From Actinomycetota bacterium (GTDB lineage Bacteria; Actinomycetota; CADDZG01; JAHWKV01): 64,000 nucleotides of DNA. Below are positions 24,459 through 62,853 of this stretch, one piece after another. The notes beneath the pieces were generated by a model. It worked only from the letters and a program-made list of their open reading frames with translations. It did no database searches and had not been told where the DNA came from. The stretch lies in the NCBI GenBank assembly GCA_036258795.1, contig DATACZ010000026.1, positions 12,552-76,551 of the forward strand. The letters are read 5' to 3'. The position numbers and the translations under genes were made by a program. Every line of letters starts with the position of its first letter. The stretch's first letter is position 1.

Positions 24459-24788
24459 GGTGCTGCGCGGGATCTATACTCTAAGGGGCGCTCCGTCTGG
24501 GTCTGTGGTTGCGGGGTTCACACCCCAAGTCCAGGCTAGTCGCAGGCAAAAGGATCCACGTAAGGCAACCATTGGTTGTTGAGCATGGTGCGGTTTAGAG
24601 GTCAGTCCTGCCTCGGGTGACGGGAAGCTCCCGGCACTTGGGAGAAGGTTCGAAGCACGGAATTTTGGTTATTCTTCCAGCAATGGGTCCCACTGGGGTT
24701 CGGGCTGGGTAACTCAAACCGTGCGAGGCTTCAGCAGGCGGATGTGGGGCCAAAGACCAGGTCAGCCGGACGGGAGGGCCCACAAGGG

Positions 24789-32701: not shown

Positions 32702-33060
32702 GGGGGCGAAACTGGTTTCGAGGCCGGTCGTTTCGTCTGGAGGAAGCGGGTCGAGGTCAGGGATCCTCGTTAAACCTGCCTGAACAATTAACTGAAACGT
32801 CGCTGCATAAGCGAGTTCCCATCTAGATAGAGATGGGCGTTCCACCCGGAAGGGCCTGCGGTCCGGGATGGGGCGTCATGCAGCAGGCTGGCTCTTGTCA
32901 CCCCCCGCCGGGCGGGGTGCAGAGTGAGACCAAAGTCCGGCTGGGCTCCGGCGAGCCTGCCTGCGGCAGTCGCCGGGTCGAGAGGTAAAAGCAGGCTATG
33001 CCCGTAGAAGCCCCAGAGGAGAGCTGTGTCGACGGGGGTTCGAATCCCCCCGCCTCCACA
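32702..33060 (+). ncRNA. ssrA: Transfer-messenger RNA (tmRNA)
   Basis: 5' GGGGGCGAAACUGGUUUCGA pairs with 3' ...GGGGGUUCGAAUCCCCCCGCCUCCA (T-arm and acceptor). Lies immediately downstream of smpB. The internal '...GUCGCUGCAUAAGCGAG' resembles the actinobacterial '...GCUGCCUAAGCGACG' tag end. Confidence 0.85.
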
Positions 33061-33373
33061 ATTACATAGATGTATTTGCGTGAGAGCTTTATGTCTTACT
33101 AGCTCCTGCTCCAATGTCTCTAACACTTGACCGGCTTGGGCTCGTCGGTGACAGGGCCATCAGGCCGTGGCTTCCGCATTCCGGCACTGCGTCCAGGTCC
33201 AACGGGCCAATATTTCAGGCGGCACCTGGGTAACTAAGTAATACAGCGGCCTTTCGGTCGATCAGGAAAGCGCACTCCGATCGGCCACCTTCTTCAAATA
33301 CGCACAGAGCAAACAACTCGAAGCCGAAGCGCTGGTTCTCATATCGGGGAAAGAGCGGAGGTGTCTGTAGGCC

Positions 33374-40339: not shown

Positions 40340-40394
40340 AGGGCCATCAAGCCCTCACCGCATACGGAGCCGACCCCAGGTATAAATGACTCCC

Positions 40395-41456
40395 ATGGAA
40401 ACGGTCCGGCTCACCCAGTACTCGCACGGCGCCGGCTGAGCTTGCAAGCTCGGCCCCGGGGACCTGGCGCAGGTCGTGCGCCGCTTAGCCAAGAAACAAG
40501 GGAGCCTGGAGCCCAACGTGCTGTTGGGCCTGGACACCCCCGACGACGCTGCCGTGTACCGGATCGACGACCGCACTGCGCTGGTGCAGACGGTCGACTT
40601 CTTCACCCCCATCGTCGACGACGCCTACTCATGGGGAGCCATTGCCGTAGCCAACGCCATGAGTGACATCTACGCCATGGGCGGCAAGCCCCTGCTCGGC
40701 CTCAACCTGGTCGGGTGGCCCAAGGAGCTGGATCTCGATCTCTTGGGCAGCGTTCTGGAAGGCGGGGCCGATAAGGCTGCCGAGGCCGGGGCGGCGGTGA
40801 TTGGAGGGCATACCGTCGACGATCCCGAGCCGAAGTTCGGGATGGCGGTTACGGGGACCGTTGATCCGGACAAGATGACCAGATTGTCCAACGCACGCCC
40901 GGGCATGGGCGTGGTTCTCACCAAGCCCTTGGGAATGGGCATCATCTCCACGGCACTCAAGCGGGGCCAGGCCGACCCGGAGCTGGTGGCGGAGGCCACC
41001 CGCATCATGGCGGAGCTGAATGCGGGGGCAGCCCAAGCAATGCTCGAGGTTGGCGCTACGGCGGCTACCGATGTCACGGGTTTTGGCCTGATAGGCCACC
41101 TGCGTGGCATGGCTGCCGCGAGCGGATGCTCCGTTGAGCTATGGTCCGATGACGTTCCGGTCATTGAAGGGGTTCGAGATCTGGCGGAGCGCCAGCTCGT
41201 TCCCGGTGGAAGCCGTAACAACCAGCGCTACTTTGGCGGCTACGTGGACTTCGATTCCGAGGTGGACGACCTGACCAGGACGGTGCTTTTTGATGCCCAG
41301 ACGTCTGGGGGCTTGCTGATTGCGGTCCCGGACGACCGACTGCAGGACTTGCTGGAGGCGCTAGGAGCCAAGGGGACGTCTGTGCAGAAAGTGATAGGCC
41401 GCTTCTTGGAGGGGGAGGCCGGGCGGATGAGGGTGACATTGCGTGAACTCCGTTGA
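40395..41456 (+). CDS. selD: Selenide, water dikinase (selenophosphate synthetase), selenocysteine-containing form
   Basis: The table ORF (GTG 40476) is preceded in frame by 'M E T V R L T Q Y S H G A G U A C K L G P G D L A Q V V R R', with TGA ~40437-40439. 'GAG-U-ACK' is the conserved SelD active-site loop where Sec or Cys occurs. Downstream is the AIRS-like body. Confidence 0.85.
40440..40500 (+). promoter_or_regulatory. Putative bacterial SECIS hairpins downstream of the selD UGA
   Basis: GC-rich hairpins, e.g. GGCGCA-GGUCG-UGCGCC, lie 25-45 nt 3' of the UGA. Confidence 0.4.
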
Positions 41457-47252: not shown

Positions 47253-47303
47253 AAGTACCGGATTTCCAGAGGAGAAAGCCGGGGCGGTCCTTCAGCAGAG
47301 GGG

Positions 47304-47387
47304 TGCGGGCGAGAGGACTCGAACCTCCACGGGAGTCAATCCCACAGGATCCTAAATCCTGCGCGTCTACCATTTCGCCACGCCCGC
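47304..47387 (-). tRNA. tRNA-Leu (anticodon TAG)
   Basis: Reverse complement GCGGGCGTGGCGAAATGGTAGACGCGCAGGATTTAGGATCCTG-[long variable arm]-GGAGGTTCGAGTCCTCTCGCCCGCA. The GGTAGACGCG D-arm is typical of tRNA-Leu. Confidence 0.8.
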
Positions 47388-47506
47388 GCGATGTCGGTCT
47401 CAGAATAGCGGGGGCTGGCCACCCGGCGGCACAGTTGGGCGCAGCGACCTGCTGAAAGTTCTTATGGAGACCTTGGAAAGGTACGGGCTATGCCGACCCA
47501 GGGTTT

Positions 47507-47994
47507 CTAAGCCTGGCCGGTGTCCTGGCTCCAGAGGTAGTCGGGCGGAAGCTCTGCGTCGTCTCCCCACCTCGACATGTCCTCTGCATGAGTGATGGCA
47601 GCGCAAAGCTTGTCCGGAGTGAGCTGTACGCCTTCTAGGCTCTCGAGCCACTTTACGGTTCTTGGGTCCCGATCTGAAATCCCGAGGTCTTCAGCCCACT
47701 CCTTCACCGATATCGGGTCGGTCATCTTAGCCATCATCCGGTCACGATCTTGCTCGGTTCGGGTAGCCCGGACAGACTCCTGCGCTGCCCGGAACTTGCG
47801 GTCTAGCTGAAAGCTGTCAACGATACGAAGCTCTTGAGGTTCGGTCTTCAGCTGAATGGCCAGAGCGGCCCTGATCAGCTCCCTCGCCCTGGGCAGGGTA
47901 GTGGCCGAACAATGAACGCCCGGCTCCTCCGCGACCTGCGCTTTCCATGCTTCGCCGTCTCGCTCGTATACCGCGGTGTAGGTCTCGGTCACTT
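47507..47994 (-). CDS. HicB-like antitoxin-fold protein (UPF0150 N-domain + HTH-like C-terminus), apparently orphan
   Basis: 'TETYTAVYERDGEAWKAQVAEEPGVHCSATTLPRARELIRAALAIQ' matches the HicB N-domain. GTG start at 47992-47994 with GGGAGGAG 9 nt upstream. Confidence 0.5.
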
Positions 47995-48437
47995 TACTCA
48001 CTCCTCCCGGGCTTTCCGTAAGTTTCCCACGTTTCAGAAAGGACACAGGCAACCTGAAATTCAAGATCCCATTATCCGACTCCTGGAACATGATTGCCGC
48101 AGCGCCTTTTCTTGCGCACTGGCTGGCGGAAATTCCGTGGGCCCAGCTTTACACAATACGAACCTTTTCCACGCGGTCAAAGGTTTGACCTTCGGGTTAT
48201 GAGCCGCATGGTCGGGGGTTCGTGCCGTCCCAACGCGTCCCACGCAGTACCGCTCAGCAGGGCGTTCGCGCACTTGACGTCTCAGTCCGTACCACCGCCG
48301 ACCAGCCAGTAGCCGCCTGCGGTGTAGAAGAAGTGCAGAACCACCTCGCCTCGTGCTGCTACGTTCGCATCGCAGCTACCTGACCAGCGCCGCTCGGAAG
48401 TTCTAGACGATCCGCTCGCTTCCGGCTCCTCGCGATC

Positions 48438-49043
48438 TCACCCGGACTGCGCGAGTGGTGGGTGTTCCAGCACGCTGGGCCGGTACTCGACCAGTTGGAT
48501 GCGGCCATCGAAGGTGCGGCTGTCGATCATGTCGAGTGCGACGTCAGGGTAGCCGTCGTAGATGCGTTCGGCTCCCGTGGCGCCGGTGATCACCGGGAAC
48601 ATGACGACCCGGAAGCGGTCGACGAGGCCGGCTCGCAGCAGCGACCGGCTTAGGCTGATGCTGCCGATCGTGCTGATGAGACCGGAGCCATCCTCCTTCA
48701 TTACGCGGACCGCTTCGACGGCGTCGTCGCGCACGAGTGTGGTGTTGGCCCAGGCGAGGGGCTCCTTGAGCGAGGCGGAGAACACCACCTTCGACGCTCG
48801 CGTGAGTTCGTCGACGGACGACTCCTCGTCGGCAGTGAACTCATCTGTTCCCTCTGGGAGCTCGCCAGCGGCAAAGCCCGACATCAGCCGGTAGGTGTTG
48901 GCTCCCATCACGTAGGTGACCTCGGGTTGCTCGCCGAGCCAGGCGAGGTACTCGGGCCCCTCGAGCCCCCACCAGCCGGGCCAGCCTTCCGCCGACGCGT
49001 AGCCGTCGAGGGAGGTGATGAAGTCGACCATCAGTTCTCGCAT
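48438..49043 (-). CDS. Dihydrofolate reductase family protein (RibD C-terminal/YwjB-like)
   Basis: 'MRELMVDFITSLDGYASAEG...VVFSASLKEP...GSGLISTIGSISLSRSLLRAGLVDRFRVVMFPVITG' matches this family. Confidence 0.75.
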   Translation of the reverse strand: MRELMVDFITSLDGYASAEGWPGWWGLEGPEYLAWLGEQPEVTYVMGANTYRLMSGFAAGELPEGTDEFTADEESSVDELTRASKVVFSASLKEPLAWANTTLVRDDAVEAVRVMKEDGSGLISTIGSISLSRSLLRAGLVDRFRVVMFPVITGATGAERIYDGYPDVALDMIDSRTFDGRIQLVEYRPSVLEHPPLAQSG

Positions 49044-49590
49044 CGTGGTCCTCCTGGAACGACGGAACGGTTGTCACGCAATGTGTGCCGGTGTGTCCTT
49101 GCCGTTCCCGAAATCATCGCATTGATCTGCGGCGACGTTGAGTCGGCGCCGAGGAGGCCAGGCTCGGGGGTTAACCAGCGCGGCGCTTCTTTGTCACGGG
49201 CCGCGGCGCGGGCTCACGCAGCCGCCCGAGCGAGTCTGTCATGGCGAGGCTGGTTCCGGCAGTTGGGCTGCCTGACCACCTTCGTGGTCGGTGGCCGGCC
49301 CGGCAAGAACTTCGCGTGGACTTTCCGAAGGTAAGCAAGCGCGGCCTTCTGAGGACCCGACCGACAAGCGGGCGGATCCGGGCCCCCACAGCCATTGCTC
49401 CCAAGTCGTGGCGCTAAGAAACAAAGACTGGGCGGGCCAACCTCCTGTCGTGCTGTCCGACAAGGCGCAATCTAAAGCAACAAGTTAGAGGTCGCCCCCA
49501 AATAGGTCCTCGTGTGACCCATGTTCGGTCGCCTGTCAGTCGCGGCTGGCATCCTGAATCAGTACGAAGCACGAGAGATAGAAGCAGAAC

Positions 49591-49839
49591 GTGATCACAC
49601 CGGAGATTACAGCACTCGCAACGCAACTCGCCGAGGCGATCACACGCAACGCCGCTAGTGCCGTAGCGAGCAAGGTGAGCGCCATCCGGGCTCGTAAGGT
49701 TGATCAGGCGACTATGAATGAGTTGATCGAGCTCGTGAACGACTTGATCGCCGACAAGAACGAACTCGTCGGCCTTGCTCAGGCATTTGAGCAAGAACTG
49801 GTTGCGCAGCAGATCTCGGAAAAGGACAGAGTCTGGTGA
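49591..49839 (+). CDS. Small hypothetical helical protein
   Basis: 82-aa ORF in a region of lower coding density. No motif. Confidence 0.3.
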   Translation: MITPEITALATQLAEAITRNAASAVASKVSAIRARKVDQATMNELIELVNDLIADKNELVGLAQAFEQELVAQQISEKDRVW

Positions 49840-50317
49840 CCGTCGAGGCCTTGACCATCATGCAGTTGGTCGGCTTCAACTTCCGACGAGCATCGGTGAA
49901 CCGTTGACCACCCTGGTCGAGCGATTGATCTTGAGCAGGATGCCTGCACCAGATCAGTCCGCTGCGCAACAGGCACTGCAACTTCGTCGGGAGGCGGCCT
50001 ACCTCGAAGCGTCGACCGACCCGGAAGCCAGACAACTGCTTCAGCAGGGCTGATTCAGCAGCGAAAGGCCCCACTGTGGCCTGTTCATCCTGGGTCGGCG
50101 CTCAGTTGACCACGAGGTAGCCTACGTCTCGCTCGGCGACGGGTACATGGTCCGAGACCATGGACCTTGAAGGGTCTTCTCCAGAGCCTGGTAGCGGACG
50201 TACGGGTTGGCGGACGACACTCCATAACGCCGCGTTTTCGAGTTCCAATGGGATCTGACGCGCACCAACCTTCAAACACCAACAACGAGGGACGGGTTCA
50301 TACACCGTCATGATCGG

Positions 50318-50389
50318 TGGGCCCCCAGGGATTCGAACCCTGAACCTATCGGTTAAGAGCCGAGTGCTCTGCCATTGAGCTAGAGGCCC
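50318..50389 (-). tRNA. tRNA-Lys (anticodon CTT)
   Basis: Reverse complement GGGCCTCTAGCTCAATGGCAGAGCACTCGGCTCTTAACCGATAGGTTCAGGGTTCGAATCCCTGGGGGCCCA. Cloverleaf with a CTCTTAA anticodon loop. Confidence 0.8.
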
Positions 50390-50398
50390 ACGATGAGT

Positions 50399-51117
50399 CT
50401 ACCGAACGTCCCATGGTCCATTGGCCATAACGTCAATCCAACCTTTGACGCGATGAAGGAGGTCGGCGCTGCGCGTTACTCGAATGGAGCAGGTGCCGTG
50501 GTAAAGCACGTTCTTCCTGTGCCCAGTGCCCTCAGTCTTTACATAGGTCTTTCGAAACTGATTTAGCGGTATGCCGGTAACCGTGGACCAATAGCTTTTA
50601 ATTTCGGCCTCTGACAATCCATCGTGGATATTGAGCGACATCCGGAATCTGTCGCTGGTGAGCTGCAGATACGACGAGGACCATGCAAGAAACACCAAGA
50701 CGAGTCCAGGGTCCGAATCGTGAATTGCAGCCGGTTGAGCCGCTTTGCTCCCTCTGCCCAGTAGGCCACCACGCCTGCCACCCAAAATGGGTCAGACAGC
50801 AGCGAAAAGGCCTCCGATCGAGCCGCAGCTCGTATGGCTTCTACGCGGCGCAGGTTGCGGTTGTGAAGAGTAAGCCCAGCCTGAAGCCGACTAGCTTTGG
50901 CGTTGTTCAGTGCCCGCAGCCTGGCCTCTTGTTCGGGGCTCAACCGAATGTCACGGCACCAAGCCGAGAGCGTTCCCCTGGAGACCGGGATGATCTGGCC
51001 AATTTCTCGATAGGACAAGCCCAGCCTTCGCAGGGACTCGGCGAGCTCCCGCCGCTCCCATCGCTTCAGGACCGGCCACAAGGGTGCCTGGGTGAGGAGC
51101 TGTGGCGGAACCTCCAT
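50399..51117 (-). pseudogene. HTH-domain protein (IS630/homeodomain-like winged HTH at the N-terminus) disrupted by a frameshift, located between tRNA-Lys and tRNA-His
   Basis: ORF 50563..51117 ('GLSYREIGQIIPVSRGTLSAWCRDIR') and ORF 50399..50785 ('...YHGTCSIRVTRS...') are on the same strand in different frames and overlap. Confidence 0.45.
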
Positions 51118-51187
51118 GAAAGGAATTGTGGGGCGTGTAGGTGACAGATTTAGGTTTAAGGGTCCGCACGTGCAGATCCAGAGCTAG

Positions 51188-51261
51188 GGTGACCGACGGG
51201 ATTTGAACCCGCGACATCCTGGACCACAACCAGGTGCTCTACCAGCTGAGCTACGGCCACC
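51188..51261 (-). tRNA. tRNA-His (anticodon GTG) with an encoded G-1
   Basis: Reverse complement G-GTGGCCGTAGCTCAGCTGGTAGAGCACCTGGTTGTGGTCCAGGATGTCGCGGGTTCAAATCCCGTCGGTCACC. The extra 5' G and the C73 discriminator are diagnostic of tRNA-His. Confidence 0.85.
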
Positions 51262-51361: not shown

Positions 51362-52555
51362 ATGCGGAGCTCTGCCGACGTGATCGTCGTGGGCGGCGGA
51401 ATACTGGGATGTTCGGTCGCCGCGGAGCTAGCCGAGATGGGCGCCGACGTGGTCTTGGTGGAGAGAGCCGAGATCGCTCACGGCGCATCAGGGCGCAACC
51501 ATGGTCTTATCTTCTACCCGCTGAATCCCATCACCGACGCCCTTTACAGGACTTCTCTCGAGATGTATCGCCAGGTTGCGTCATCGCCGGACCTGGACAT
51601 CGAGCTCGACGAGAAGCCGGTGGGCTTTCTAATCCTCGTAGCGCGGGAGGACGAGTGGCCTGTGGCCTTGGCAGAGGCGTCCGCTTGCCAGGTAGGCGGA
51701 AAGGAGGTCCGCCGGGTGGACCGAGGGGAGCTTCATGTCCTGGAGCCCAACCTTTCAGACACGTTCGACGGCGCTTATCTGGTCGAAGACGGGTACCGAG
51801 TCGATCCCCAAGCGCTGACGCTGGCCTTTTCCCTCCTCGCCCAGGCCGATGGAGCCGACGTCGAGACCCATACGGAAGCGAAGCGAGTGATTGTTCGTGG
51901 TGACCGTGTTGAGGGGGTAGCGACCGACCGTGGCCTGATCCATTCGAGGATCGTGGTACTCGCCACCGGGCCCTGGGCCCCAAAGCTTGCTAGGACCGCG
52001 GGAGTCGACCTGGATATTTCCGGAGCCAGAGGCTGGCTGGTGCTAACAAGACCGGCTCCACCCCTGTGCCGCCATGTTCTAGTATCGGCCGGTTGGCACC
52101 TCGTCACGGGAGTCGAGGGACCGGCCGAAATCACGCTGGGGGCGTATGCGAGGGGAGATGCCCCGGTTCCCTCAGACGTCGGCCTTCTTATTCAGCAGAA
52201 CGCTTCAGGGCATGTGCTGTTGGGGGGGTCGCGCTCCGTATCCGTAAGGCAGGACCCTGAGGGCCCAGAGGTAACGAGGGAGATAGCCAGGCGTGCCGTG
52301 GCCGCTCTACCGGCCCTGGGCCCTATTCCCATAACCGAGGTTCGGTCGGGGGTAAGGCCGATGAGTCCCGATGGGTCTCCATTCATCGGGTGGGTGCCGG
52401 GCGTGGAAGGGCTCTTTGTGGTCGGAGGGCATGGTGGGCAAGGGATCATGCTTGGCGGAGGCAGCGCGAGGCTGGCGGCCCAGATGATCCGAGGAAGGAC
52501 GCCTTTTACGGATCCATCCCTTTTTGCCCTCGACCGGCTTAGTCCTGGACGATGA
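51362..52555 (+). CDS. FAD-dependent oxidoreductase, DAO family (glycine/sarcosine oxidase-like)
   Basis: 'DVIVVGGGILGCSVAAELAEMGADVVLVE' dinucleotide-binding motif and a C-terminal 'GHGGQGIM'. Confidence 0.8.
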   Translation: MRSSADVIVVGGGILGCSVAAELAEMGADVVLVERAEIAHGASGRNHGLIFYPLNPITDALYRTSLEMYRQVASSPDLDIELDEKPVGFLILVAREDEWPVALAEASACQVGGKEVRRVDRGELHVLEPNLSDTFDGAYLVEDGYRVDPQALTLAFSLLAQADGADVETHTEAKRVIVRGDRVEGVATDRGLIHSRIVVLATGPWAPKLARTAGVDLDISGARGWLVLTRPAPPLCRHVLVSAGWHLVTGVEGPAEITLGAYARGDAPVPSDVGLLIQQNASGHVLLGGSRSVSVRQDPEGPEVTREIARRAVAALPALGPIPITEVRSGVRPMSPDGSPFIGWVPGVEGLFVVGGHGGQGIMLGGGSARLAAQMIRGRTPFTDPSLFALDRLSPGR

Positions 52556-52579: not shown

Positions 52580-54010
52580 TCAGGATTCGGTCGGATTCCT
52601 CTCCAGGAGCACGCTCATGCCGTCGGAAAGCTGAGACATCCGGCCCAGAAATAGGCTTCCCTTGGCGAGCATATGCACTCTTTGGGCGTCTCCGGTGGTG
52701 AGACGGCGCAGAGCGTGCGGAAGATAACAGATCGCCGAGGCGAGGTGACCCTGCGTGGGGGCGAAGCCAGGCATTCCTCTCTCGGCCACAAACTCGTCGA
52801 TCTGGTCCTTTGACATCTCGCCCTTGCGGGCCGCCAGGCTTGCAATCATCCGGTAGTTGCGTTCGGGAACGTTGCCCGAGCCCTGTGGCTCGGTAACCTC
52901 GGGATCGTGCAGCTCGGTGGCGTAGTCGTCCACTTCCAGCATTGAAATGCCGGTGCGCTCCAAGGGCTCGACGGCCAGCGCCTGCATGATCTGGGGGTTG
53001 GAGCCTCCCATCGCAACCCGGTGCCGGCCAACGGTATCCAGCCGAAGGAGCGGTGAGGCCCCGTCGTCGGCCTCGATGAGAAGAGCGACCCCGCCCATTA
53101 CGTCCTCTAAAACCGGAAGGTCGTTGCGAAGATGCCCCTGGAACTTCATTCCCAGCTTTGGAAGGGAGCCGCCGGCAGCGACGGCCACCCTCTTGAAGAC
53201 TCCCGAGTTGACCAACGCACCGGCGAACACCATGGCCGGTAGGGGAGCCGCGCAGAAGTTCTTGATGTCGGCCCCAGAGGACTGTGTCAGGCCGGCTAGG
53301 GATGCCATAGCCTTGGCCATGTTCCCCCCGCCCCGTTGATAACGGTCGCCCACTGCTTCTTCCCCGCAGGTAAGTACGAAGTCGATCGACTCCGGATCGA
53401 TGTCGTGATCTTCGATCAGGTGCAGCAGGGCGAGTACTCCGGTTGCCTTGCAGGCAAGGTTCTCGAGCAGGATGTTTGCGGTAAGTGACTCGTCTTCGGA
53501 GTGAGCGGTCTTGACGGCGCCGGCAACCTCCTCGCCCAGGTACAGGGGCAAGCCCCCGGTCTCGGCTCCCGCGGCCTCGGCATCCTCTGCAACGTTTTCC
53601 AGGCGCTCTAGGTTGAACTTCTTGGATAGAGGGTGCTTCGCCAGCGCCTCTGCCGCCCGTTCGGCTACCGGCCCGTCCAGGACGATCAAGCTGAACTCGT
53701 CGACTGCGGCCATCAGCCCTAGAAACTCCTCCTCCGGCATCGCCTCGCCATCCGGCGTGAAGCGTGAGCTGCCTGGGACGGTCTTGCCGACCCTGGGACG
53801 CTCGGGCATCTCGCGGGGATGGATAGCACCCAGATATGCCTGATTGGGGGGATAACCCATGGCTTCATCGAAGCTCCGAAGGCTCGAGAGGAACTTGGAC
53901 TTCTGATCCGGGTTTTTGGGCAGCTCCCGCGACGGCTTGGACCCGTACCGGGCCAGGTTCGGCGTGTGGGCAAGGATATGGCTTGCTGCAGATACGACGG
54001 GTTTGGTCAC
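52580..54010 (-). CDS. Glycine/sarcosine/betaine reductase complex protein C-like (GrdC-like, thiolase-fold with 'NFCAA' Cys)
   Basis: N-terminus 'MTKPVVSAASHILAHTPNLARYGS' resembles GrdC (from memory). Starts 11 nt downstream of grdB. Confidence 0.6.
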   Translation of the reverse strand: MTKPVVSAASHILAHTPNLARYGSKPSRELPKNPDQKSKFLSSLRSFDEAMGYPPNQAYLGAIHPREMPERPRVGKTVPGSSRFTPDGEAMPEEEFLGLMAAVDEFSLIVLDGPVAERAAEALAKHPLSKKFNLERLENVAEDAEAAGAETGGLPLYLGEEVAGAVKTAHSEDESLTANILLENLACKATGVLALLHLIEDHDIDPESIDFVLTCGEEAVGDRYQRGGGNMAKAMASLAGLTQSSGADIKNFCAAPLPAMVFAGALVNSGVFKRVAVAAGGSLPKLGMKFQGHLRNDLPVLEDVMGGVALLIEADDGASPLLRLDTVGRHRVAMGGSNPQIMQALAVEPLERTGISMLEVDDYATELHDPEVTEPQGSGNVPERNYRMIASLAARKGEMSKDQIDEFVAERGMPGFAPTQGHLASAICYLPHALRRLTTGDAQRVHMLAKGSLFLGRMSQLSDGMSVLLERNPTES

Positions 54011-54023
54011 ACCAATTCCTTTC

Positions 54024-55316
54024 CTATTCGGTCGATGCCGGTTCGAACACCGTGGGCTTTTCGACTTCGGTGGAGATGGCCGTTAGTGCGGTCTCCAGCA
54101 ATTGCCGGCGCCACTCCTTTTCCTGATCCGGAGCGAGGCTGGGATCCCCTGCAGGGTATGGGATGCCCCTCGTCGGAACGATGCGGGGCGCGCCGACCCT
54201 GCTTGCGATCGGCACGAGGTTGCACAGGAGGGCGGTCGGAATGCCGGCCCTCTCCAGCTCTTTGGCAAGCGTTGACCCGCAACGCGTACCCGTCCCTCAG
54301 GTCGAGGTGAGGATGGCGGCCTGAACGCCGGCCTTGCGAAGCTCCTCGGCCCACTCGACCCCGTAGCCGGAGGCTGAGTCGATGGGCATGCCGTTTCCGA
54401 CCGTGACCAGATACTCGGAGTGCAACTGACCAATACGGCCCTCTTTCTCCATCTCCCGGGCCACGTCCAGGGGAAGAATCCGGTTCGGGTCCTCGTTGGC
54501 TTTTACGGTCGAGAACCCGCCGTGAATCGATTGAAATTCGCCCGCCGGCATGCTTTCCCTTTCCTCTAACGGGTACCGCAGCCACCGGGTGGCCCGGGAG
54601 GACTCCAGCCGGCCTGGATTTCCGTTGGGAACAAGCCCTCCTTCAGTTAGGAGGGCGATCAGGGCGTCCGCGGGATCGGACACCGGCGGAGCCGGCTCTA
54701 CGGTGCCGAAGTCGGGAAGTGGGATCTCGGTTGCGCTGCTGTCGCCGCCAAGGCGCTTCAGCGCCAGTGCAACCGCCCTCGTGGCGGCGTTGTCCTCAGC
54801 CATGCGATTTCGACGTGGACCCTTTCCCTTGATGGCATTGGGAATCTCTTCTCCGGCGGCTAGCTTGGCGACCGCGTCGGCGATTGCCTCCAGGGCGTCG
54901 CCCATCTCCCTGGCGGTCTCGCCGGTTGGAACGACCGGTGCTGAGCCTGCCTCCGCTACCCCAGGGTTGTCTGGGTGCATGGCCGCGAGGGTCTTGAGCC
55001 CTGCCTCGAAGGCGGCCGCGGCCACTCGCCCGCAAGCAATGCCGTTGCGCCCGCTGGTGAAGGCCGGACCGGCAATCAGAATCTCGGCATCCGTTCCCTT
55101 TACCAGCTCCAAGATCTCCTCAGCGGCGCCGTCCTTTGACGCTGCGTAGTCGTCGCCGCAGGACACCGTGGCTATGATCTGGTGCTGGTCCCCGAGAAGC
55201 GAAGCAAGCTTGCGGCCGGGGCCCAGCGGCTCTTCCTTGAGCTCGGGACCCGCGTTCGCGGAGTCCTCTCCGCCTATGCCGGCGAAGAACTGGTTGATGT
55301 AGTGGACGATCTTCAA
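54024..55316 (-). CDS. grdB: Glycine-reductase-family selenoprotein B (GrdB), with selenocysteine encoded by in-frame TGA at 54297..54299
   Basis: The table ORF 54297..55316 ('MKIVHYINQFFAGIGGED...AAILTST*') stops at TGA. The same frame continues 'U-GTGTRCGSTLAKELERAGIP...IPYPAGDP...TEVEKPTVFE*' (table ORF 54024..54215). This matches the GrdB 'VILTSTUGTCTRCGATMVKEIERVGIP...TVFE' architecture. Confidence 0.85.
54260..54296 (-). promoter_or_regulatory. Putative SECIS hairpin 3' of the grdB UGA (GCGUUG-CGGGU-CAACGC)
   Basis: A 6-bp stem with a G-rich 5-nt loop begins ~13 nt downstream of the UGA on the mRNA. Confidence 0.45.
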
Positions 55317-56590
55317 CTCGCGGCTTCCTCCCAGCAGGTCAAGCGCCCCCAGCCCAGTGGGTTGAGTGATCCGTATACCGCTGCCGTCTGGAGGCTCAGC
55401 TCAGCAGTCGAGGGGTCATCGGTAAGGTCAAGGATCTCACCTCCGAGCGCGCGCTCTACGGCATCGAGCTTGATGATCTCATCGTAATTCCCGGCGCTAA
55501 CCAAAGCAGAGCCCTTAGTTGGTGGAGATACGAGGGGGGGACCGGATCCGTCCGGACCTGCCATCTCACCGTGGATTGAAACAGCCTTGATGCCCATGGC
55601 CTCGCAGGCGTCGGCCTTTAAAGAATTGTCGGAGTCGGCGTTGCCGCCCCCCTCCTTGGTCAGGATGACCGCATCCAGACCGAGGCTGGCGCACAGGCGG
55701 GCGGCATGCTCGGATATCAGCTCCTTGTGAGCCTGTTCCACGGGCTCGGGGGAGAGGATCAGGCCGGCAAAGTCCAGGTCTTGCCCATCCCGTGCTCGAA
55801 GAGCGGCCACCACAGGGTGGTTCTGGTAAAGGTAAGTGTTGTTCTTGAGCCCCGGGTGTCCGTACTGACCGCTCACCACCGCCCCATCTTCCAGCTCACT
55901 TGGATCCATGAGGGTGGGCAGAGAATCCGACATGGAACGGCCGTATACAAAGACGTCCTTGAATGTTCCCTGAGTCTGAAGGTTCGTGATGGTTCCGATC
56001 CGGGGACGGTCGCCGGGAGCAGGGGTAGTAGTGGGCGCGACTTCTCGCTCTTCATCGGGTTCAGACTCGAGGGCAGCCTCGGCCAGGCGGGCGGCGAGCT
56101 TGAGGATTCCGCGGCGAAGGGCCAGGTCGACGTCCTCCCAGGCGGCTCCCTCTGCGGGCTCGAACTCGACCACCAGATTATGGGTGCTGCCAAAGGGTGA
56201 CAGCTCCGCGGCCGGGCCCGACATTTGAATCAACCCTTCCTGGAGCCTGGGCAGGTATCCGGCAGAGATCACCGCGGCTCCCCTTAAGACGTGGGTCTCT
56301 CCCCGTCCCTGCGGCATGGCCTTGCCGAGGAAGCCGGGGAAGATTCCAGCACCTTCAGGGCCCTTGGTACGCGGCTGTACCGCGTCGAGAACCTTGATCA
56401 CTCGGGCACTCTCCCCGGGTGAGATCCAGGACACGTTGGTCGACGCCAGCGCGCGGCTGGAAAGGCATGCCTTCGCCTCATCGGCAGAGACCGTGAGCCT
56501 TCCGCCCTCAAAGGTCGTGGAATCGCCAAAGCCCACCGACTCGACGTCGTGGCAAAGCAGTTTGAGAGGGCCTACTTCCTTATCTGTCAT
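55313..56590 (-). CDS. grdE: Glycine-reductase-family proprotein GrdE-like (protein B alpha/beta precursor)
   Basis: 'RVIKVLDAVQPRTKGPEGAGIFPGFLG...THVLRGAAVISAGYLPRLQEGLIQMSGPAAELSPF' parallels GrdE 'RIAPVKDVIEPRVKVEGSGAMFPGM...THALVGSTVL...GFQEGVIDMSGPIAKY'. The stop overlaps the grdB start. Confidence 0.75.
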   Translation of the reverse strand: MTDKEVGPLKLLCHDVESVGFGDSTTFEGGRLTVSADEAKACLSSRALASTNVSWISPGESARVIKVLDAVQPRTKGPEGAGIFPGFLGKAMPQGRGETHVLRGAAVISAGYLPRLQEGLIQMSGPAAELSPFGSTHNLVVEFEPAEGAAWEDVDLALRRGILKLAARLAEAALESEPDEEREVAPTTTPAPGDRPRIGTITNLQTQGTFKDVFVYGRSMSDSLPTLMDPSELEDGAVVSGQYGHPGLKNNTYLYQNHPVVAALRARDGQDLDFAGLILSPEPVEQAHKELISEHAARLCASLGLDAVILTKEGGGNADSDNSLKADACEAMGIKAVSIHGEMAGPDGSGPPLVSPPTKGSALVSAGNYDEIIKLDAVERALGGEILDLTDDPSTAELSLQTAAVYGSLNPLGWGRLTCWEEAAS

Positions 56591-56736: not shown

Positions 56737-58161
56737 CTAGCTGAAGTGACGCCTCAGCACCGTCCGGGCTGCGTGAAAACCGCACATCCCGTGCACGCCC
56801 GCTCCCGGCCGTGTGGACGATGAGCAAATGTAGATTCCTTCGGCGGGGGTTCGATAGGGGTTCAACCTCGGCGCCGGCCTGGCGAAAAGCTGACGCAGGT
56901 CCTGCAACCCACCAACGATGTCTCCCCCCACACAATTTGCATTGTGCCGTTCCAGCTCTGCAGGGCCCATGGCACTACGGGCGAGCACGAGGTCTTTAAA
57001 GCCGGGAGCGTAACGCTCGATCTGCCGCTCGATGGCATAGGTCATGTCAACGTCGGACCCATTTGGAACGTGGCAGTATCCCCAGAGAGTCTGCTTGCCT
57101 TTAGGAGCCCTCGAGTCGTCGAACAAACTCTGCTGAGCCACGATCACATAAGGCCTCTGCGGGTGGACGCCCTTGAAGACCCACTCCTCGGCTTCGGCGA
57201 TTTCGTTCAGGCTTCCCCCCAGGTGGACCGTTCCTGCGAGAGCGCAGAGTTCCGACTTCCACGGAACCGGCCCGTCCAGAGCCCAGTCGACCTTGAAGAC
57301 GCCAGGGCCGTGCCGGTAGTTCTCCAGGGTTCGAACATATCTGTCAGGTAGCTGGCCCCCTGCAAGGCGAATGACCTGCCGCGGATTAACGTTCAAAAGA
57401 GCGACCCTGTGCTGGGGAAGCTGACCCAGAGACTCCACCCGCTCCCCGGCGAGTATGTGACCGCCCAGTGTCTGGAAGTAAGAGACAAGGGCATCGGCAA
57501 TTTTTTGGGACCCTCCTCTCGCCAACGGCCATCCCACTGCATGCCCAAGAAACCCCAGTAGAAGGCCGAAGCCGCCGGTCGGGCTCTGGTCGAGGGGAAG
57601 AATGGAATGAGCTGCCAGACCTGCCACGAGGGCTCGAGCCGGCTCGCCGGTAAACATGGCTCTGGCAAGACCGGTGGCCGACCTGATGCCGGCAAGCGCA
57701 AAGCGGGCCATTAGCAGAGGGTGACGGGGAGGACGGAGCGGCCCGAGTACTTGATCGATTATTTGGCTCCATCCCCGAACCAGCGGAGTCATGAGAGACG
57801 AGTAGGCCCACGAGTCGTAGGCGAGTCCAGCCGCGGTCACATCCACAGATCTTCTGAGCACCACGGCGCCGCCTTCATCGAGCGGATGAGCCACAGGGAT
57901 CGGAGGCTGTACCAGCTGGAGGCCGTGCTCCTCGAGGGGCAGTGCTCGAAAAACAGGCGAGCACAGGGCCATTGGATGGATAGCCGAACAGACGTCGTGG
58001 ACGAATCCCGGAAGGGTAAGCTCCGCCGAGCGCATCCCTCCTCCGAGGTCCGGCTCCGCTTCCACCAGAAGTACCGAGACGCCCGCCTGCGCCAGCGTGA
58101 CGGCCGCCACAAGGCCATTGGGCCCTGCGCCCACCACCACGGCATCGTAGCTATCAGTCAT
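56737..58161 (-). CDS. FAD/NAD(P)-binding oxidoreductase, phytoene-desaturase (CrtI)-like family
   Basis: 'YDAVVVGAGPNGLVAAVTLAQAGVSVLLVEA' Rossmann motif. 474 aa. Confidence 0.75.
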   Translation of the reverse strand: MTDSYDAVVVGAGPNGLVAAVTLAQAGVSVLLVEAEPDLGGGMRSAELTLPGFVHDVCSAIHPMALCSPVFRALPLEEHGLQLVQPPIPVAHPLDEGGAVVLRRSVDVTAAGLAYDSWAYSSLMTPLVRGWSQIIDQVLGPLRPPRHPLLMARFALAGIRSATGLARAMFTGEPARALVAGLAAHSILPLDQSPTGGFGLLLGFLGHAVGWPLARGGSQKIADALVSYFQTLGGHILAGERVESLGQLPQHRVALLNVNPRQVIRLAGGQLPDRYVRTLENYRHGPGVFKVDWALDGPVPWKSELCALAGTVHLGGSLNEIAEAEEWVFKGVHPQRPYVIVAQQSLFDDSRAPKGKQTLWGYCHVPNGSDVDMTYAIERQIERYAPGFKDLVLARSAMGPAELERHNANCVGGDIVGGLQDLRQLFARPAPRLNPYRTPAEGIYICSSSTRPGAGVHGMCGFHAARTVLRRHFS

Positions 58162-59848: not shown

Positions 59849-61234
59849 CTAACGGCTCGCCGGAGCCCCCGCAAGCTCTTTCACAAGCTCTGCGGCGAAG
59901 CCCTTGGCATCACCGAAGAGCATCATGGTCTTGTCCATGTAGTAAAGGTCGTTGTCTATCCCGGCAAACCCCGGCGACATGCTGCGTTTGATGACCATCA
60001 CGGTCTGGGCCTTGTCGACATCGAGGATGGGCATGCCGTATATGGGGCTGCCCTCGTCGGTTCGTGCGGCAGGGTTGGTGACGTCATTGGCTCCGATGAC
60101 CAGGGCTACGTCGGCCTGGGGGAATTCGGAGTTGATCTCGTCCATGTCCAAGAGCCTGTCGTATGGAATGTCTGCCTCAGCAAGCAGCACGTTCATGTGA
60201 CCGGGCATTCGCCCGGCAACAGGGTGGATGGCGAACCTGACATCCGTTCCCTGCCGTGTCAGCACGTCGTAGAGCTCCCTGACTTTGTGCTGAGCCTGCG
60301 CCACCGCCATTCCGTATCCCGGAACGATGATTACCGACGAAGCGGCCTCCAAGATGGAGGCGGCCTCCTCTGCCGTGGCGCTTCGATAGGTTCGCTCCTC
60401 CTCTTCCCCGGCTTTGGCGGCAACCTGGCCGAAACCTCCGAACAGCACGTTGGCAAAAGAGCGATTCATCGCCCGGCACATGATGATGGACAGGATCAAG
60501 CCGGAGGATCCGTCGAGGGCTCCGGCGATGATCAACAGCTTGTTGTCCAGTACGAACCCCATCATCGCCGCAGCCAGTCCGGCATAAGCGTTCAGCAGTG
60601 AGATAACCGTCGGCATGTCGGCCCCACCTATGGGGATGATGAGCAGGATCCCAAACAAAAGCGACAGACCTATGAGGATGGGGAAGAGGCTGGTGGCTCC
60701 CGGGTTGGTGATGAGATAGGCCGCGATTGCCACCGCGGTGCCAAAGATGGTCAGGTTCACCACGTTCTGACCCCGATAGACGATCGGCCGTGTGGGCAGG
60801 ATGTCCTGCAACTTACCAAAAGCCATCAGTGATCCCGTGGTGGTCAGGAATCCCAGCACGACCTCCACGGCGAGAGCCCCCATGATGAAGGGCGAAAGCT
60901 CCTCGAGATGGAGGTAGTACTCGGCGGTGCCGACCAGCCCGGCCGCCAGGGCCCCAAAGGCGTGCGATATGGCGGTTCTCTGGGGTACGGCGGTCATCGG
61001 CATGAATACGGCAAGGGGTATTCCGATTGCGGACCCAACGAAGAACGCCACGAGGATCCACTCGTAGCTGACGATCTCCGCCCGGAGCAGTGTCCCGATC
61101 ACGGCCAGCAGCATGCCGATCTCTCCTGCCTTGACCCCTCGCCTTGCGGTCGTGGGGTGGCTCAGCCACTTGAGCGCAAGGATGAATCCAACCGCGGCCA
61201 GGACGTATGCGAACTCCACCACCCACTCGCTCAT
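59849..61234 (-). CDS. pntB: NAD(P) transhydrogenase subunit beta
   Basis: 461 aa, N-terminal TM bundle and a C-terminal NADP(H)-binding domain. Confidence 0.9.
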   Translation of the reverse strand: MSEWVVEFAYVLAAVGFILALKWLSHPTTARRGVKAGEIGMLLAVIGTLLRAEIVSYEWILVAFFVGSAIGIPLAVFMPMTAVPQRTAISHAFGALAAGLVGTAEYYLHLEELSPFIMGALAVEVVLGFLTTTGSLMAFGKLQDILPTRPIVYRGQNVVNLTIFGTAVAIAAYLITNPGATSLFPILIGLSLLFGILLIIPIGGADMPTVISLLNAYAGLAAAMMGFVLDNKLLIIAGALDGSSGLILSIIMCRAMNRSFANVLFGGFGQVAAKAGEEEERTYRSATAEEAASILEAASSVIIVPGYGMAVAQAQHKVRELYDVLTRQGTDVRFAIHPVAGRMPGHMNVLLAEADIPYDRLLDMDEINSEFPQADVALVIGANDVTNPAARTDEGSPIYGMPILDVDKAQTVMVIKRSMSPGFAGIDNDLYYMDKTMMLFGDAKGFAAELVKELAGAPASR

Positions 61235-61527
61235 GACTTCTCCGGCTCTCGCTTCTTGAACATCTTGAGCATCCGGTCGGTGATCATGAAGCCACCGACC
61301 ACGTTGGCCGTGGACGCCGTGACGGCGATGGTCCCCAGCAGAGTGGTAAAGGGACTACGTTCAGACCCGGCAAGGATGATGGAGCCGACCAGCGAGATGG
61401 CCGAGATGGCGTTTGTCAGGGACATAAGCGGGGTGTGAAGCAGGGGCGAAACCCTCCTTATGACCTCCAGGCCCAGGAAGGTAGCCAGCACGAATACGAT
61501 CAGACCGGTAAGCAGGTCGTCTTCCAT
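61231..61527 (-). CDS. pntAB: NAD(P) transhydrogenase subunit alpha part 2 (membrane)
   Basis: 98 aa, 3 TM, overlaps pntB. Confidence 0.85.
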   Translation of the reverse strand: MEDDLLTGLIVFVLATFLGLEVIRRVSPLLHTPLMSLTNAISAISLVGSIILAGSERSPFTTLLGTIAVTASTANVVGGFMITDRMLKMFKKREPEKS

Positions 61528-61560
61528 GTGTTGCTCTTAATCCCCCTTTCGGACTGGGCG

Positions 61561-62853
61561 TTACTTCTGGGCCGGCTCGGCTGGGGCCGGGGGCTGCTTT
61601 GGGGCGGCGGCCGGCGGAGCAGGCGATAGCTCTCCTGGCGGCGCGGCAGGAACCTCGGCCGGCTTGACCTCCGGAGTGAGCTCTTCCAAGCCCAAAGACC
61701 TTCTTATTCTCGGGTGGACCACCTCGCCGTCACGGGTCAAAAGGGTGTCCCGGATGATCTGATCCTCCATGTTGATGTTCACCTTGCCGTCTTTGGCCAG
61801 AGTCAGAAGAAAGGTGGCCACATTCTTTGAGTACATCGAGCTGGCGTGAAACGGCACGGTGGCCGGCAGATTGGTGGGGCCGTGAATCGTCACACCATGC
61901 TCGACGACCACCTCGTCCGGGCGGGTCAGCTCGCAGTTGCCTCCGCGCTCTGCCGCCAGATCGACGATTACCGAGCCCGGTTGCATCCCCGCCACCATCT
62001 CCCCTGTAATCAGCACAGGCGCTGGCTGTCCGGGAATCGCAGCTGTGGTTATCACCACGTCGTTGGCGGCAACGACCCGCGTCATCATCTCCCGCTGTTT
62101 GATCAGGATCTCTTCGTCCATCTTCTTGGCATAGCCACCGGTGTCCTCGGCCTCTCCGGTATCCAGATCCAATTCGACGAACTTGGCTCCGACGCTCTGG
62201 ACCTGCTCCTTGACTGCCGGACGAACGTCGTATGCCTCCACCACGGCTCCGAGCCGACGGGCGGTCGCGATCGCCTGAAGCCCAGCGACCCCTGCTCCAA
62301 CCACGAAGACACGTGCTGGGCGGATGGTTCCAGCTGCAGTGGTCAGCATCGGGAACATCTTGGGCAGCGACCCTGCCGCCAGCACAACGGCCTTGTACCC
62401 GCCGACTGTCGCCTGCGAAGAGAGCGCGTCCATACTCTGGGCCCTGGTTATCCGGGGCATCAGCTCCATTGCAAATACGGACACTTCGCTCTTGGCCAGC
62501 TCGGAGATTCCTTCGGCATTCGAGAGTGGGTCCGAGAAGCCCACCAGGACCTGGCCAGGGCGGAGAAGATCCAGGTCGCCCTTTCCCTTGTCGGGGTTAG
62601 AGCCGAAGGTGCGAACCTGGACGATGATGTCGGCAGCGGCGAAGACCTCTTTACGTGAATCGAGGATCCTCGCCCCCTTGTCGGCATAGGCCTCGTCGAG
62701 GAAGCCCGCAGCCTCACCGGCGCCGGTCTGTACGACAATTTCCATACCAGGCTTCTTGACGGAGGGCAGAGTCGCAGGGACGAGAGCCACTCTGGCTTCT
62801 CCCGGGAATGACTCGGTGGGAACCCCCACCGTAAGTCGCTGCTCGTCTGCCAT
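61561..62853 (-). CDS. pntAA: NAD(P) transhydrogenase subunit alpha part 1 (NAD-binding), with Pro/Ala-rich C-terminal tail
   Basis: An alanine-dehydrogenase-like fold and 'VFVVGAGVAGLQAIATARRLGAVV' Rossmann motif. Confidence 0.85.
   Translation of the reverse strand: MADEQRLTVGVPTESFPGEARVALVPATLPSVKKPGMEIVVQTGAGEAAGFLDEAYADKGARILDSRKEVFAAADIIVQVRTFGSNPDKGKGDLDLLRPGQVLVGFSDPLSNAEGISELAKSEVSVFAMELMPRITRAQSMDALSSQATVGGYKAVVLAAGSLPKMFPMLTTAAGTIRPARVFVVGAGVAGLQAIATARRLGAVVEAYDVRPAVKEQVQSVGAKFVELDLDTGEAEDTGGYAKKMDEEILIKQREMMTRVVAANDVVITTAAIPGQPAPVLITGEMVAGMQPGSVIVDLAAERGGNCELTRPDEVVVEHGVTIHGPTNLPATVPFHASSMYSKNVATFLLTLAKDGKVNINMEDQIIRDTLLTRDGEVVHPRIRRSLGLEELTPEVKPAEVPAAPPGELSPAPPAAAPKQPPAPAEPAQK

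Follow-up and report, generated by a model that had tools for sequence, protein, structure and literature searches.

A grdB-family selenoprotein gene interrupted by an in-frame UGA in a GC-rich member of the Actinomycetota

During our examination of a 64,000-nucleotide stretch of DNA from an Actinomycetota bacterium (contig DATACZ010000026.1 of assembly GCA_036258795.1; hereafter the window) we encountered a gene on the reverse strand that is divided between two open reading frames, but which is almost certainly a single gene encoding the selenocysteine-containing beta subunit of the substrate-specific "protein B" of the glycine/sarcosine/betaine reductase family (Table 1). The sequence features described below suggest that this GC-rich actinobacterium uses selenocysteine and carries an enzyme of the glycine reductase type. 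From 55316 to 54024 a single frame comprises 430 sense codons followed by a TAG stop (54026-54024), and its sole internal TGA is codon 340, which is found in the translated context ...AAILTST-U-GTGTRCGSTLAKELERAGIP...TEVEKPTVFEPASTE. ORFs 54297..55316 and 54024..54215, both present in the ORF list, share this frame, which bears out the original prediction that they are parts of one gene of about 430 codons split at an in-frame UGA, with selenocysteine at 54297-54299. The gene starts with TTG (55316-55314) and is translationally coupled to the GrdE-like gene upstream, the start overlapping the TGA stop of that gene by 4 nt (TTGA). Proteins of this family from relatives begin with MK/MRIVHY at the same site, with ATGA overlaps.

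Table 1. Location of the grdB-family gene, its recoding signals and associated genes within the window
Feature	Position	Strand	Basis
Complete grdB-family selenoprotein gene	54024..55316	-	Frame and translation; TIGR01918; PF07355
In-frame UGA predicted to be read as selenocysteine (TST-U-GTGTRCG)	54297..54299	-	Conservation among relatives
Putative SECIS hairpin (core stem-loop 54285..54269 plus weaker lower stem)	54264..54290	-	Fold; Rfam SECIS_4; synonymous constraint
GrdE/GrdG/GrdI-like partner subunit of protein B, 425 residues	55313..56590	-	PF09338, E = 1.9e-101
grdC, component C beta subunit	52580..54010	-	NF040746, 567 bits (cut-off 450), positions 1-476 of 477
FAD-dependent amine-oxidase/CrtI-family oxidoreductase	56737..58161	-	PF01593; PF13450
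selD (selenophosphate synthetase), second selenoprotein gene	40386..41456	+	TIGR00476; NF002098

Alignment of the conceptual read-through protein with its family, which had been proposed as a check, gives an end-to-end match to TIGR01918 (436.5 bits, cut-off 65.45, over positions 1-431 of the 431 in the profile, E = 1.1e-130) and 374 bits against PF07355 (cut-off 22). Identity to the GrdB, GrdF and GrdH references is approximately equal, at 40-44% (40% for GrdH of E. gilvus). The division of the gene at its UGA is a familiar annotation artefact: all 120 of the best database homologues (60-99% identity) have a called length of 338-351 aa and end at this TGA, and near-identical genes from independent assemblies stop at the same ...AAILTST. 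Matches came from about 150 GTDB species. The two ORFs should accordingly be merged in the annotation into one selenoprotein of 430 residues, and selD should be treated likewise. Searches of PDB sequences with the GrdB-family and GrdE-like proteins as queries returned no relatives, and a look-up of the exact GrdE-like protein yielded two short metagenome contigs only.

The UGA is followed by a hairpin with a 6-bp stem and a 5-nt loop (GCGUUG-CGGGU-CAACGC). When the U of the UGA is numbered 1, the stem is formed by G15-G20 and C26-C31 and the loop by C21-G-G-G-U25, while a weaker lower stem of 4 bp involves positions 10-13 and 33-36 (54290..54287 and 54267..54264). Folding of this region of the minus strand thus recovers the 6-bp stem and G-rich loop that had been described from the letters of the sequence, although the spacing from UGA to stem is 11 nt and not the 13 or so first given. 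The hairpin is built from the codons ACG CGT TGC GGG TCA ACG, encoding T-R-C-G-S-T, and these codons (+4 to +9 after the UGA) show almost no synonymous variation among 76-81 distinct sequences. Codons for conserved residues have a mean third-position entropy of 1.03 bits; values below 0.15 bits are found in only 8 of 193 such columns across the gene, and six of the eight make up the unbroken run of codons 344-349 that folds into the hairpin and includes CGT and TCA, neither of them an expected favourite of a GC-rich genome. This is the one such island of synonymous-site invariance in the gene.

In a permissive local search the Rfam model SECIS_4 (RF01990), which represents the bacterial SECIS of grdB-type mRNAs, matches 54259..54296 with 26 bits, short of the gathering score of 38 (E = 6e-4). 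The alignment begins immediately 3' of the UGA and runs over the whole 38-position model. Model and window have the stem CGUUG/CAACG in common, whereas the lower stem is poorly matched and the model's closing C-G pair is a C/U mismatch in the window, because Ser (UCA) stands in place of Ala (GCA). At gathering thresholds, Rfam detects raiA, tmRNA and three tRNAs in the window, and no SECIS. This hairpin recurs in identical register in grdF of Peptoclostridium acidaminophilum, grdH of E. gilvus and grdB of Acetoanaerobium and Photobacterium, except that the base of the stem shows a U-A to G-C exchange between these reference genes and the window; the loop is CGGGU on a 6-bp stem in the window, in contrast to GGN on a 7-bp stem in the references. 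Since the folding energy is no better than chance (z = -1.35, with 20 of 200 shuffled sequences folding equally well) and the minimum-free-energy fold of the 131-nt context lacks the hairpin, thermodynamics was not used as evidence. We nevertheless consider that the hairpin exceeds chance expectation, because the TGA is universally conserved in the related loci (see below), the island of synonymous invariance coincides with it and SECIS_4 matches at the exact site. It therefore appears to be under selection at the nucleotide level and to constitute a GrdB-type SECIS element with an Rfam score below the gathering threshold.

The selD gene in the window belongs to the Sec machinery needed by the grdB UGA. 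Its product scores 386 bits against TIGR00476 (cut-off 125) and 357 bits against NF002098 (cut-off 299), and it contains an in-frame TGA of its own at 40437-40439, in the context SHGAG-U-ACK; this exact codon is TGC or TGT (Cys) in 20 related selD genes. The grdB-family gene and selD were the only credible candidates in a scan of the window for other genes with an in-frame TGA. No tRNA-Sec, selA or selB was found within the 64-kb window with ARAGORN and tblastn; in 18 relatives selD, tRNA-Sec(UCA), selA and selB adjoin the orthologous grd cluster.

Each of the 84 related loci that extend to this position (54-99% protein identity) has TGA as the homologous codon, and so the search for cysteine-encoding orthologs that had been suggested as a test yielded no locus with TGC or TGT. 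The motif U-GTGTRCG is invariant after the UGA in these loci (n = 84), the 90 residues C-terminal to it are strongly conserved although their codons vary synonymously, and in alignments the TGA coincides with a TGA in the reference grdF, grdH and grdB genes. ORF callers do break the gene in two, but this pattern, together with the identical end found in independent assemblies, rules out for practical purposes a pseudogene reading in which a nonsense mutation, or an error of sequencing or assembly, had altered a former Cys codon. It is very improbable that the UGA is a true stop, giving a protein of 339 residues with a separate small gene or untranslated segment downstream. A 77-residue ORF is sometimes annotated after the truncated gene, but the residues immediately after the UGA (GTGTRCGSTLAKELERAGIPTALL...) are conserved as protein with synonymous variation and precede any start codon of the downstream ORF (the first GTG is at 54215), and the family model aligns without a break across the UGA. 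Recoding of UGA to residues other than selenocysteine has been described for a few bacteria. Here such recoding, whether to Cys via a Sec-like tRNA or through a genome-wide UGA sense code, found no support in our analysis and is equally hard to credit. TGA is the commonest true stop in the window, where it ends 25 of 44 long ORFs of high GC3, including the upstream grdE-like gene; this rules out an alternative genetic code and identifies the UGA in the grdB-family gene as a local recoding event. The presence of selenophosphate synthetase in the window, and of tRNA-Sec(UCA), selA and selB in relatives, likewise argues for selenocysteine, and Cys homologues are rare or absent in the GrdB family (PMC1794560).

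The full-length match, the conserved UGA and the SECIS place the protein in the selenoprotein B subfamily (TIGR01918/PF07355), within which the gene falls into an actinobacterial, uncharacterised branch. It is unlikely to encode GrdB in the narrow sense, the canonical glycine-specific subunit of Stickland-type glycine reductases. This identity would be in keeping with the family-level match, the gene order grdE-grdB-grdC, the location of trx-grdA directly downstream in relatives and the label "glycine reductase" that some sources attach to homologues, but the read-through protein scores only 401 bits against the GrdB equivalog TIGR01917 (cut-off 602) and is no closer to the GrdB references than to GrdF or GrdH. 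It also fails the full published GrdB motif (Nobu et al. 2022, PMC9751293), matching two of the five sub-motifs, whereas the GrdB proteins of Acetoanaerobium and Photobacterium, used as positive controls, both pass. Moreover, the binding of glycine and sarcosine as Schiff bases depends on pyruvoyl-forming cysteines, which are missing from the partner subunit. The redox motif is UxxGxxC (U-G-T-G-T-R-C) in the window and in all 84 relatives, in contrast to U-G-T-C-T-R-C in the references; UxxC is listed as a GrdB motif (PMC9312934). The G at +3 is a clade-specific replacement of the first Cys in the canonical U-GTCTRCG. The original prediction of a GrdB region of the form TST-U-GT(C/G)TRCG was correct as to the motif, which reads TST-U-GTGTRCG, and did not address the departure from the canonical glycine-specific protein. 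Scores also fall below the cut-offs for GrdF (NF040794, 427 bits against 800) and GrdH (NF040795, 381 bits against 775), and the published GrdF motif, which the P. acidaminophilum GrdF passes as a positive control, has no match. By the criteria that define the glycine, sarcosine and betaine enzymes the clade does not qualify as any of them, and its partner subunit is without pyruvoyl-forming residues.

GrdB (glycine), GrdF (sarcosine) and GrdH (betaine) from P. acidaminophilum and other Firmicutes are full-length homologues of the protein encoded in the window. They share with it a selenocysteine within ...LT[SA]T-U-GT and the T-R-C-G codons of the hairpin, and their genes similarly adjoin a PF09338 partner and grdC. 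The hosts differ, being a GC-rich (61%) member of the Actinomycetota in the case of the window and anaerobic firmicutes in the case of the references. A literature search for glycine reductase in Thermoleophilia, Solirubrobacterales, Pseudonocardia or Actinomycetota MAGs found nothing relevant.

The GrdE-like partner likewise stays below the model cut-offs, scoring 241 bits against the GrdG model (cut-off 780) and 145 bits against the FarE model (cut-off 675). In the region of the pyruvoyl site the references read SGN-C-VxxC-DK, whereas the partner in the window reads SGQ-Y-GHPG-LKN, and SGQ-[YFH]-GHP[GAS]-L, with neither Cys, is found in every actinobacterial locus where the partner region was recovered. 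The subunit in the window thus has neither of the cysteines that serve in self-cleavage and pyruvoyl formation.

On the other side of the grdB-family gene, grdC lies 13 nt downstream and is retained after grdB in most of the related loci whose contig reaches that far. The CrtI-family oxidoreductase gene is located on the same strand, 146 nt upstream of the GrdE-like gene; it immediately precedes grdE in most of the closest relatives (L003-L015; L012, with its short flank, is the one locus that lacks it), and no Solirubrobacterales or Pseudonocardiaceae locus shows this arrangement. The gene may be part of the operon in the sub-lineage to which the window belongs. Neither grdA nor trx was detected in the window (tblastn), nor did the surrounding 10 kb contain them in the closest sub-lineage (L003-L015). 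Both are found in most relatives from the Solirubrobacterales and Pseudonocardiaceae (53 loci with grdA, 49 with trx), and these genes may be located elsewhere in the genome of the organism from which the window derives. The grdD gene adjoins grdC in all three reference loci with a protein-C operon, but was found neither in the window nor within 10 kb on either side of the 84 actinobacterial loci (tblastn, and a GrdD profile HMM at E <= 1). Of the genes that accompany protein B in a complete complex, grdC is present in the window, and grdA, thioredoxin and grdD are missing from it. Clustering of the neighbourhoods of 82 loci, in which the clusters were polluted by the antisense ORFs typical of GC-rich DNA, revealed grdE, grdB, grdC, trx, grdA and selDAB, and apart from these no transporter or additional gene that is conserved and might point to a substrate.

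Partners of the alpha type that lack the cysteines for autocatalytic cleavage, as in the window, are known from betaine reductase (GrdH/GrdI) and from the fluoroacetate reductase FarB/FarE of Cloacibacillus porcorum; GrdI and FarE are not proproteins (PMC10838667), and presumably the partner in the window is not one either. FarB resembles the protein in the window also in departing from the CxxC arrangement beside the selenocysteine. GrdI, however, retains the second cysteine (SGS-F-MPC), whereas the GrdE-like partner in the window has neither. Further differences are evident in the betaine locus of E. gilvus, where a BCCT gene adjoins grdH and grdD accompanies grdC; there is no betaine transporter near the cluster in the window, and its grdC is without grdD.

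By analogy with these systems, the chances are about even that the actinobacterial type uses no pyruvoyl Schiff base, because its partner has no cleavage cysteines, and would be more akin to betaine reductase GrdHI or to FarEB than to glycine reductase proper. SelB and Sec-tRNA(Sec) would bind the hairpin and decode the UGA as selenocysteine. If the enzyme follows the established chemistry of its relatives (Andreesen 2004, summarised in PMC9908766), its selenol would attack an X-CH2-COO- substrate, bound to the GrdE-like partner, at the alpha-carbon and release X, after which the Se-carboxymethyl group would pass to selenoprotein A and be turned into an acetyl unit by protein C (GrdC). It is conceivable, although we regard it as rather doubtful, that the module grdE*-grdB(U)-grdC(-trx-grdA) defines an uncharacterised substrate class in largely aerobic soil Actinomycetota, which would be pyruvoyl-independent, UxxGxxC-containing and GrdD-less. 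Either its substrate would not be glycine, sarcosine or betaine, or its acetyl-release chemistry would differ, and the sub-lineage of the window would have a CrtI-like flavoprotein in place of nearby trx-grdA; this flavoprotein could be an alternative electron-delivery partner. If soil Actinomycetota do indeed use a different substrate, this would broaden a family whose known members come mostly from anaerobes that ferment amino acids.

A more distant relationship is observed with D-proline reductase. The GrdE-like partner does not resemble PrdA (44 bits, cut-off 700), and the GrdB-family protein scores 78 bits against the PrdB cut-off of 300. PrdB, at approximately 240 residues, has no counterpart of the N-terminal half, but is a distant homologue with selenocysteine in the equivalent C-terminal motif (TIGR04483, E = 6e-22, residues 257-393).

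The splitting of selenoprotein genes at UGA is a familiar artefact of annotation, and we consider it almost certain that the minus-strand reading frame studied here is a GrdB-family gene decoded with Sec. The two ORFs that the original prediction joined into one gene of about 430 codons both appear in the mechanical ORF list and share a frame; translation from 55316 to 54024 gives 430 sense codons with a lone internal TGA at 54297-54299 (...GVQAAILTST-*-GTGTRCGSTLAKELERAGIP...TEVEKPTVFEPASTE, then a TAG stop). With Cys in place of the stop, the read-through protein matches all 431 positions of the NCBIfam model TIGR01918 (‘glycine/betaine/sarcosine/D-proline family reductase selenoprotein B’) at 436 bits (E 1e-130; cut-off 65 bits), as well as Pfam PF07355, confirming the split-gene observation. 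The TTG start shares four bases (TTGA) with the TGA that terminates the gene upstream, and grdC starts 13 nt past the TAG.

The best 120 matches in a collection of 5.8 billion proteins share 60-99% identity with the query, span 79% of it and measure 338-351 residues, gene callers having ended all of them at the same codon as the UGA in the window; the closest database homologues end in ...AAILTST. DNA of relatives came from 4 loci obtained by exact-protein look-up and 80 loci from GTDB species genomes, the latter being Actinomycetota MAGs throughout bar one labelled Dormibacteria. The closest GTDB loci belong to unclassified ‘Actinomycetota bacterium’ (69-74% identity), followed by Solirubrobacterales and Gaiellales and then by Pseudonocardiaceae. 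The codon homologous to the proposed Sec position is TGA in 84/84 loci, and GTGTRCG follows it without exception; a Cys codon in relatives, named beforehand as evidence against the prediction, was found at this position in none of the 84. Across the related loci the 50 codons after the UGA are conserved in the residues they encode but change freely at third positions, so the downstream segment is translated in the grdB frame. This same-frame conservation excludes a reading as two genes, while the TGA common to all 84 loci excludes an assembly error and, together with the conserved downstream residues, a pseudogene. A variant genetic code is likewise ruled out: elsewhere in the window TGA acts as a genuine stop more often than any other codon, ending 25 of 44 long high-GC3 ORFs, and the recoding is therefore local.

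The SECIS-like hairpin predicted to follow the UGA was recovered by folding, as a 6-bp stem (G15-G20/C26-C31, the U of UGA being 1) with loop C21-GGG-U25 at 54285..54269, lengthened by four weaker pairs. Its folding energy is unremarkable alone (z = -1.35). Codons +4 to +9 (ACG CGT TGC GGG TCA ACG) are essentially without synonymous variation across 81 distinct sequences; third-position entropy is 0.7-1.8 bits in the invariant Gly/Thr/Gly codons just before +4 and in the Leu/Lys/Glu codons after +9. Only 8 of the 193 conserved-residue codon columns in the whole gene fall below 0.15 bits, and six of these are codons +4 to +9. A permissive Rfam search of 54150-54400 matched the full SECIS_4 model (RF01990) at 54259-54296 with 26 bits (E 6e-4), below the gathering score of 38; the model consensus encodes GTCTRCGATMVKE, the canonical GrdB peptide. 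A CGUUG...CAACG hairpin lies in the same register in P. acidaminophilum grdF, E. gilvus grdH, Acetoanaerobium grdB and Photobacterium grdB; at the stem foot these four carry a U-A pair, the actinobacterial clade a G-C pair. The comparative signal for the putative SECIS hairpin is strong.

A check for the Sec machinery was answered in part: the window contains selD, itself interrupted by a UGA, but tRNA-Sec, selA and selB were not found within its 64 kb. In the ORF list selD appears only as its post-stop part (40476-41456). The read-through SelD scores above both selD equivalog cut-offs, and TGC or TGT (Cys) stands at its UGA codon in 20 related selD genes, which makes a classic Sec/Cys pairing. 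A 7-bp hairpin lies about 25 nt past this UGA, with an energy no better than shuffles (MFE fold of 60 nt from the UGA onwards). In 18 relatives selD, tRNA-Sec(UCA), selA and selB are directly upstream of grdE-grdB-grdC-trx-grdA, and grdA of these clusters has an in-frame TGA too. For the organism of the window the machinery is shown only in part. What the sequence shows is a single gene whose UGA is conserved and whose hairpin is under constraint, accompanied by a partner gene translationally coupled to it, by grdC and by selD in cis. The original interpretation is supported.

Features of the window around the grdB-family gene and elsewhere
Feature	Position	Strand	Remark
raiA RNA motif	24492-24774	+	RF03072, 130 bits
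tmRNA gene	32702-33061	+	RF00023, 130 bits
selD (selenophosphate synthetase)	40386-41456	+	in-frame TGA 40437-40439 in catalytic SHGAG-U-ACK motif
Three tRNA genes (Leu-tag, Lys-ctt, His-gtg)	47302-51260		syntenic with relatives’ loci
DAO/glycine-oxidase-like enzyme	51362-52555	+	downstream of grd genes, convergent
grdC	52580-54010	-	
grdB-family gene	54024-55316	-	
PF09338 partner subunit	55313-56590	-	
CrtI/amine-oxidase-family FAD oxidoreductase	56737-58161	-	directly upstream of grd genes, same strand
PntAA-PntAB-PntB transhydrogenase genes	59849-62853		syntenic in several L003-L015 loci

Few bacterial selenoproteins are as widespread as GrdB (PMC9312934, PMC1794560), and at least one NCBI-named homologue (P0042) already bears the TIGR01918 family name. 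We found no literature on the actinobacterial GrdB-family clade, and the remaining interest lies in the departure of this whole clade from the characterised enzymes in motifs, partner cysteines, grdD and neighbourhood. The GrdB-family protein of the window is 40-44% identical to all references, which come from the plasmid collection and comprise annotated genes (P. acidaminophilum grdG and grdF; E. gilvus trxB-trx-grdA-grdC-grdD-grdI-grdH) and the unannotated Acetoanaerobium and Photobacterium grd operons. It scores below the equivalog cut-offs for GrdB (401 against 602), GrdF (427 against 800) and GrdH (381 against 775), and fails the published GrdB and GrdF motifs (Nobu et al. 2022, PMC9751293), which the references pass as positive controls. 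The Sec motif is UxxGxxC in all 84 loci, in contrast to UxxCxxC in the references. Residues ~312-319 (54361-54384, minus strand) fall within the published GrdB specificity motif; they read TVGNGMP[IV]DSA in the window and in the two relatives closest to it (P0002, P0003), and TxGNGT[STA]V in canonical GrdB and the other actinobacterial homologues inspected (L003, L004, L006, L074). The same three proteins carry GRNG in place of GRYG, and these differences may mark a sub-lineage-specific alteration of the substrate pocket.

The partner subunit reads SGQ-Y-GHPG-LKN where GrdE/GrdG have SGN-C-VxxC-DK. In every actinobacterial locus (L003-L086) that yielded this region, the partner shows SGQ-[YFH]-GHP[GAS]-L and both self-cleavage/pyruvoyl-forming cysteines are absent. 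The window partner resembles in this GrdI (betaine) and FarE (fluoroacetate), which likewise lack those cysteines and are not proproteins, the CxxC being missing from FarB (PMC10838667). By analogy only, there is perhaps an even chance that no pyruvoyl Schiff base is used, and hence that a betaine-like or other substrate with a good leaving group would be likelier than glycine. On the chemistry known for the family (PMC9908766, summarising Andreesen 2004), SelB-dependent insertion would place Sec at the grdB UGA, its selenol would make a nucleophilic attack on the alpha-carbon of a substituted acetate, and the carboxymethyl group would pass to GrdA and be converted by protein C. The grdC of the window is a good equivalog (567 bits, cut-off 450). 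Searches by tblastn and by a GrdD profile HMM, covering the window and 10 kb either side of each of the 84 actinobacterial loci, found no grdD; in the reference operons of Enterococcus, Acetoanaerobium and Photobacterium it comes immediately after grdC. Thus grdD is either unlinked or dispensed with in the actinobacterial clade.

The closest relatives, forming the sub-lineage of the window (L003-L015), share the order prephenate dehydratase (opposite strand), CrtI-like FAD oxidoreductase, grdE-like, grdB and grdC, with the convergent DAO-family flavoprotein slightly further downstream; trx-grdA is not nearby, and only here do two flavoproteins flank the grd genes. One MAG not assigned to Actinomycetota (L035, JBHELP010000242.1; label Candidatus Dormibacteria) also has the grdE-grdB-grdC cluster, at 66% identity and in a different order, with grdA before trx and with selD, tRNA-Sec, selB and selA downstream; horizontal transfer or misbinning may account for it. 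The 99% identical JGI contig L001 ends at its 3' side (positions ~2380-2425) in unrelated sequence (...NGNRSEERRVGKECFKKC) that looks like an assembly chimera or adapter-like tail.
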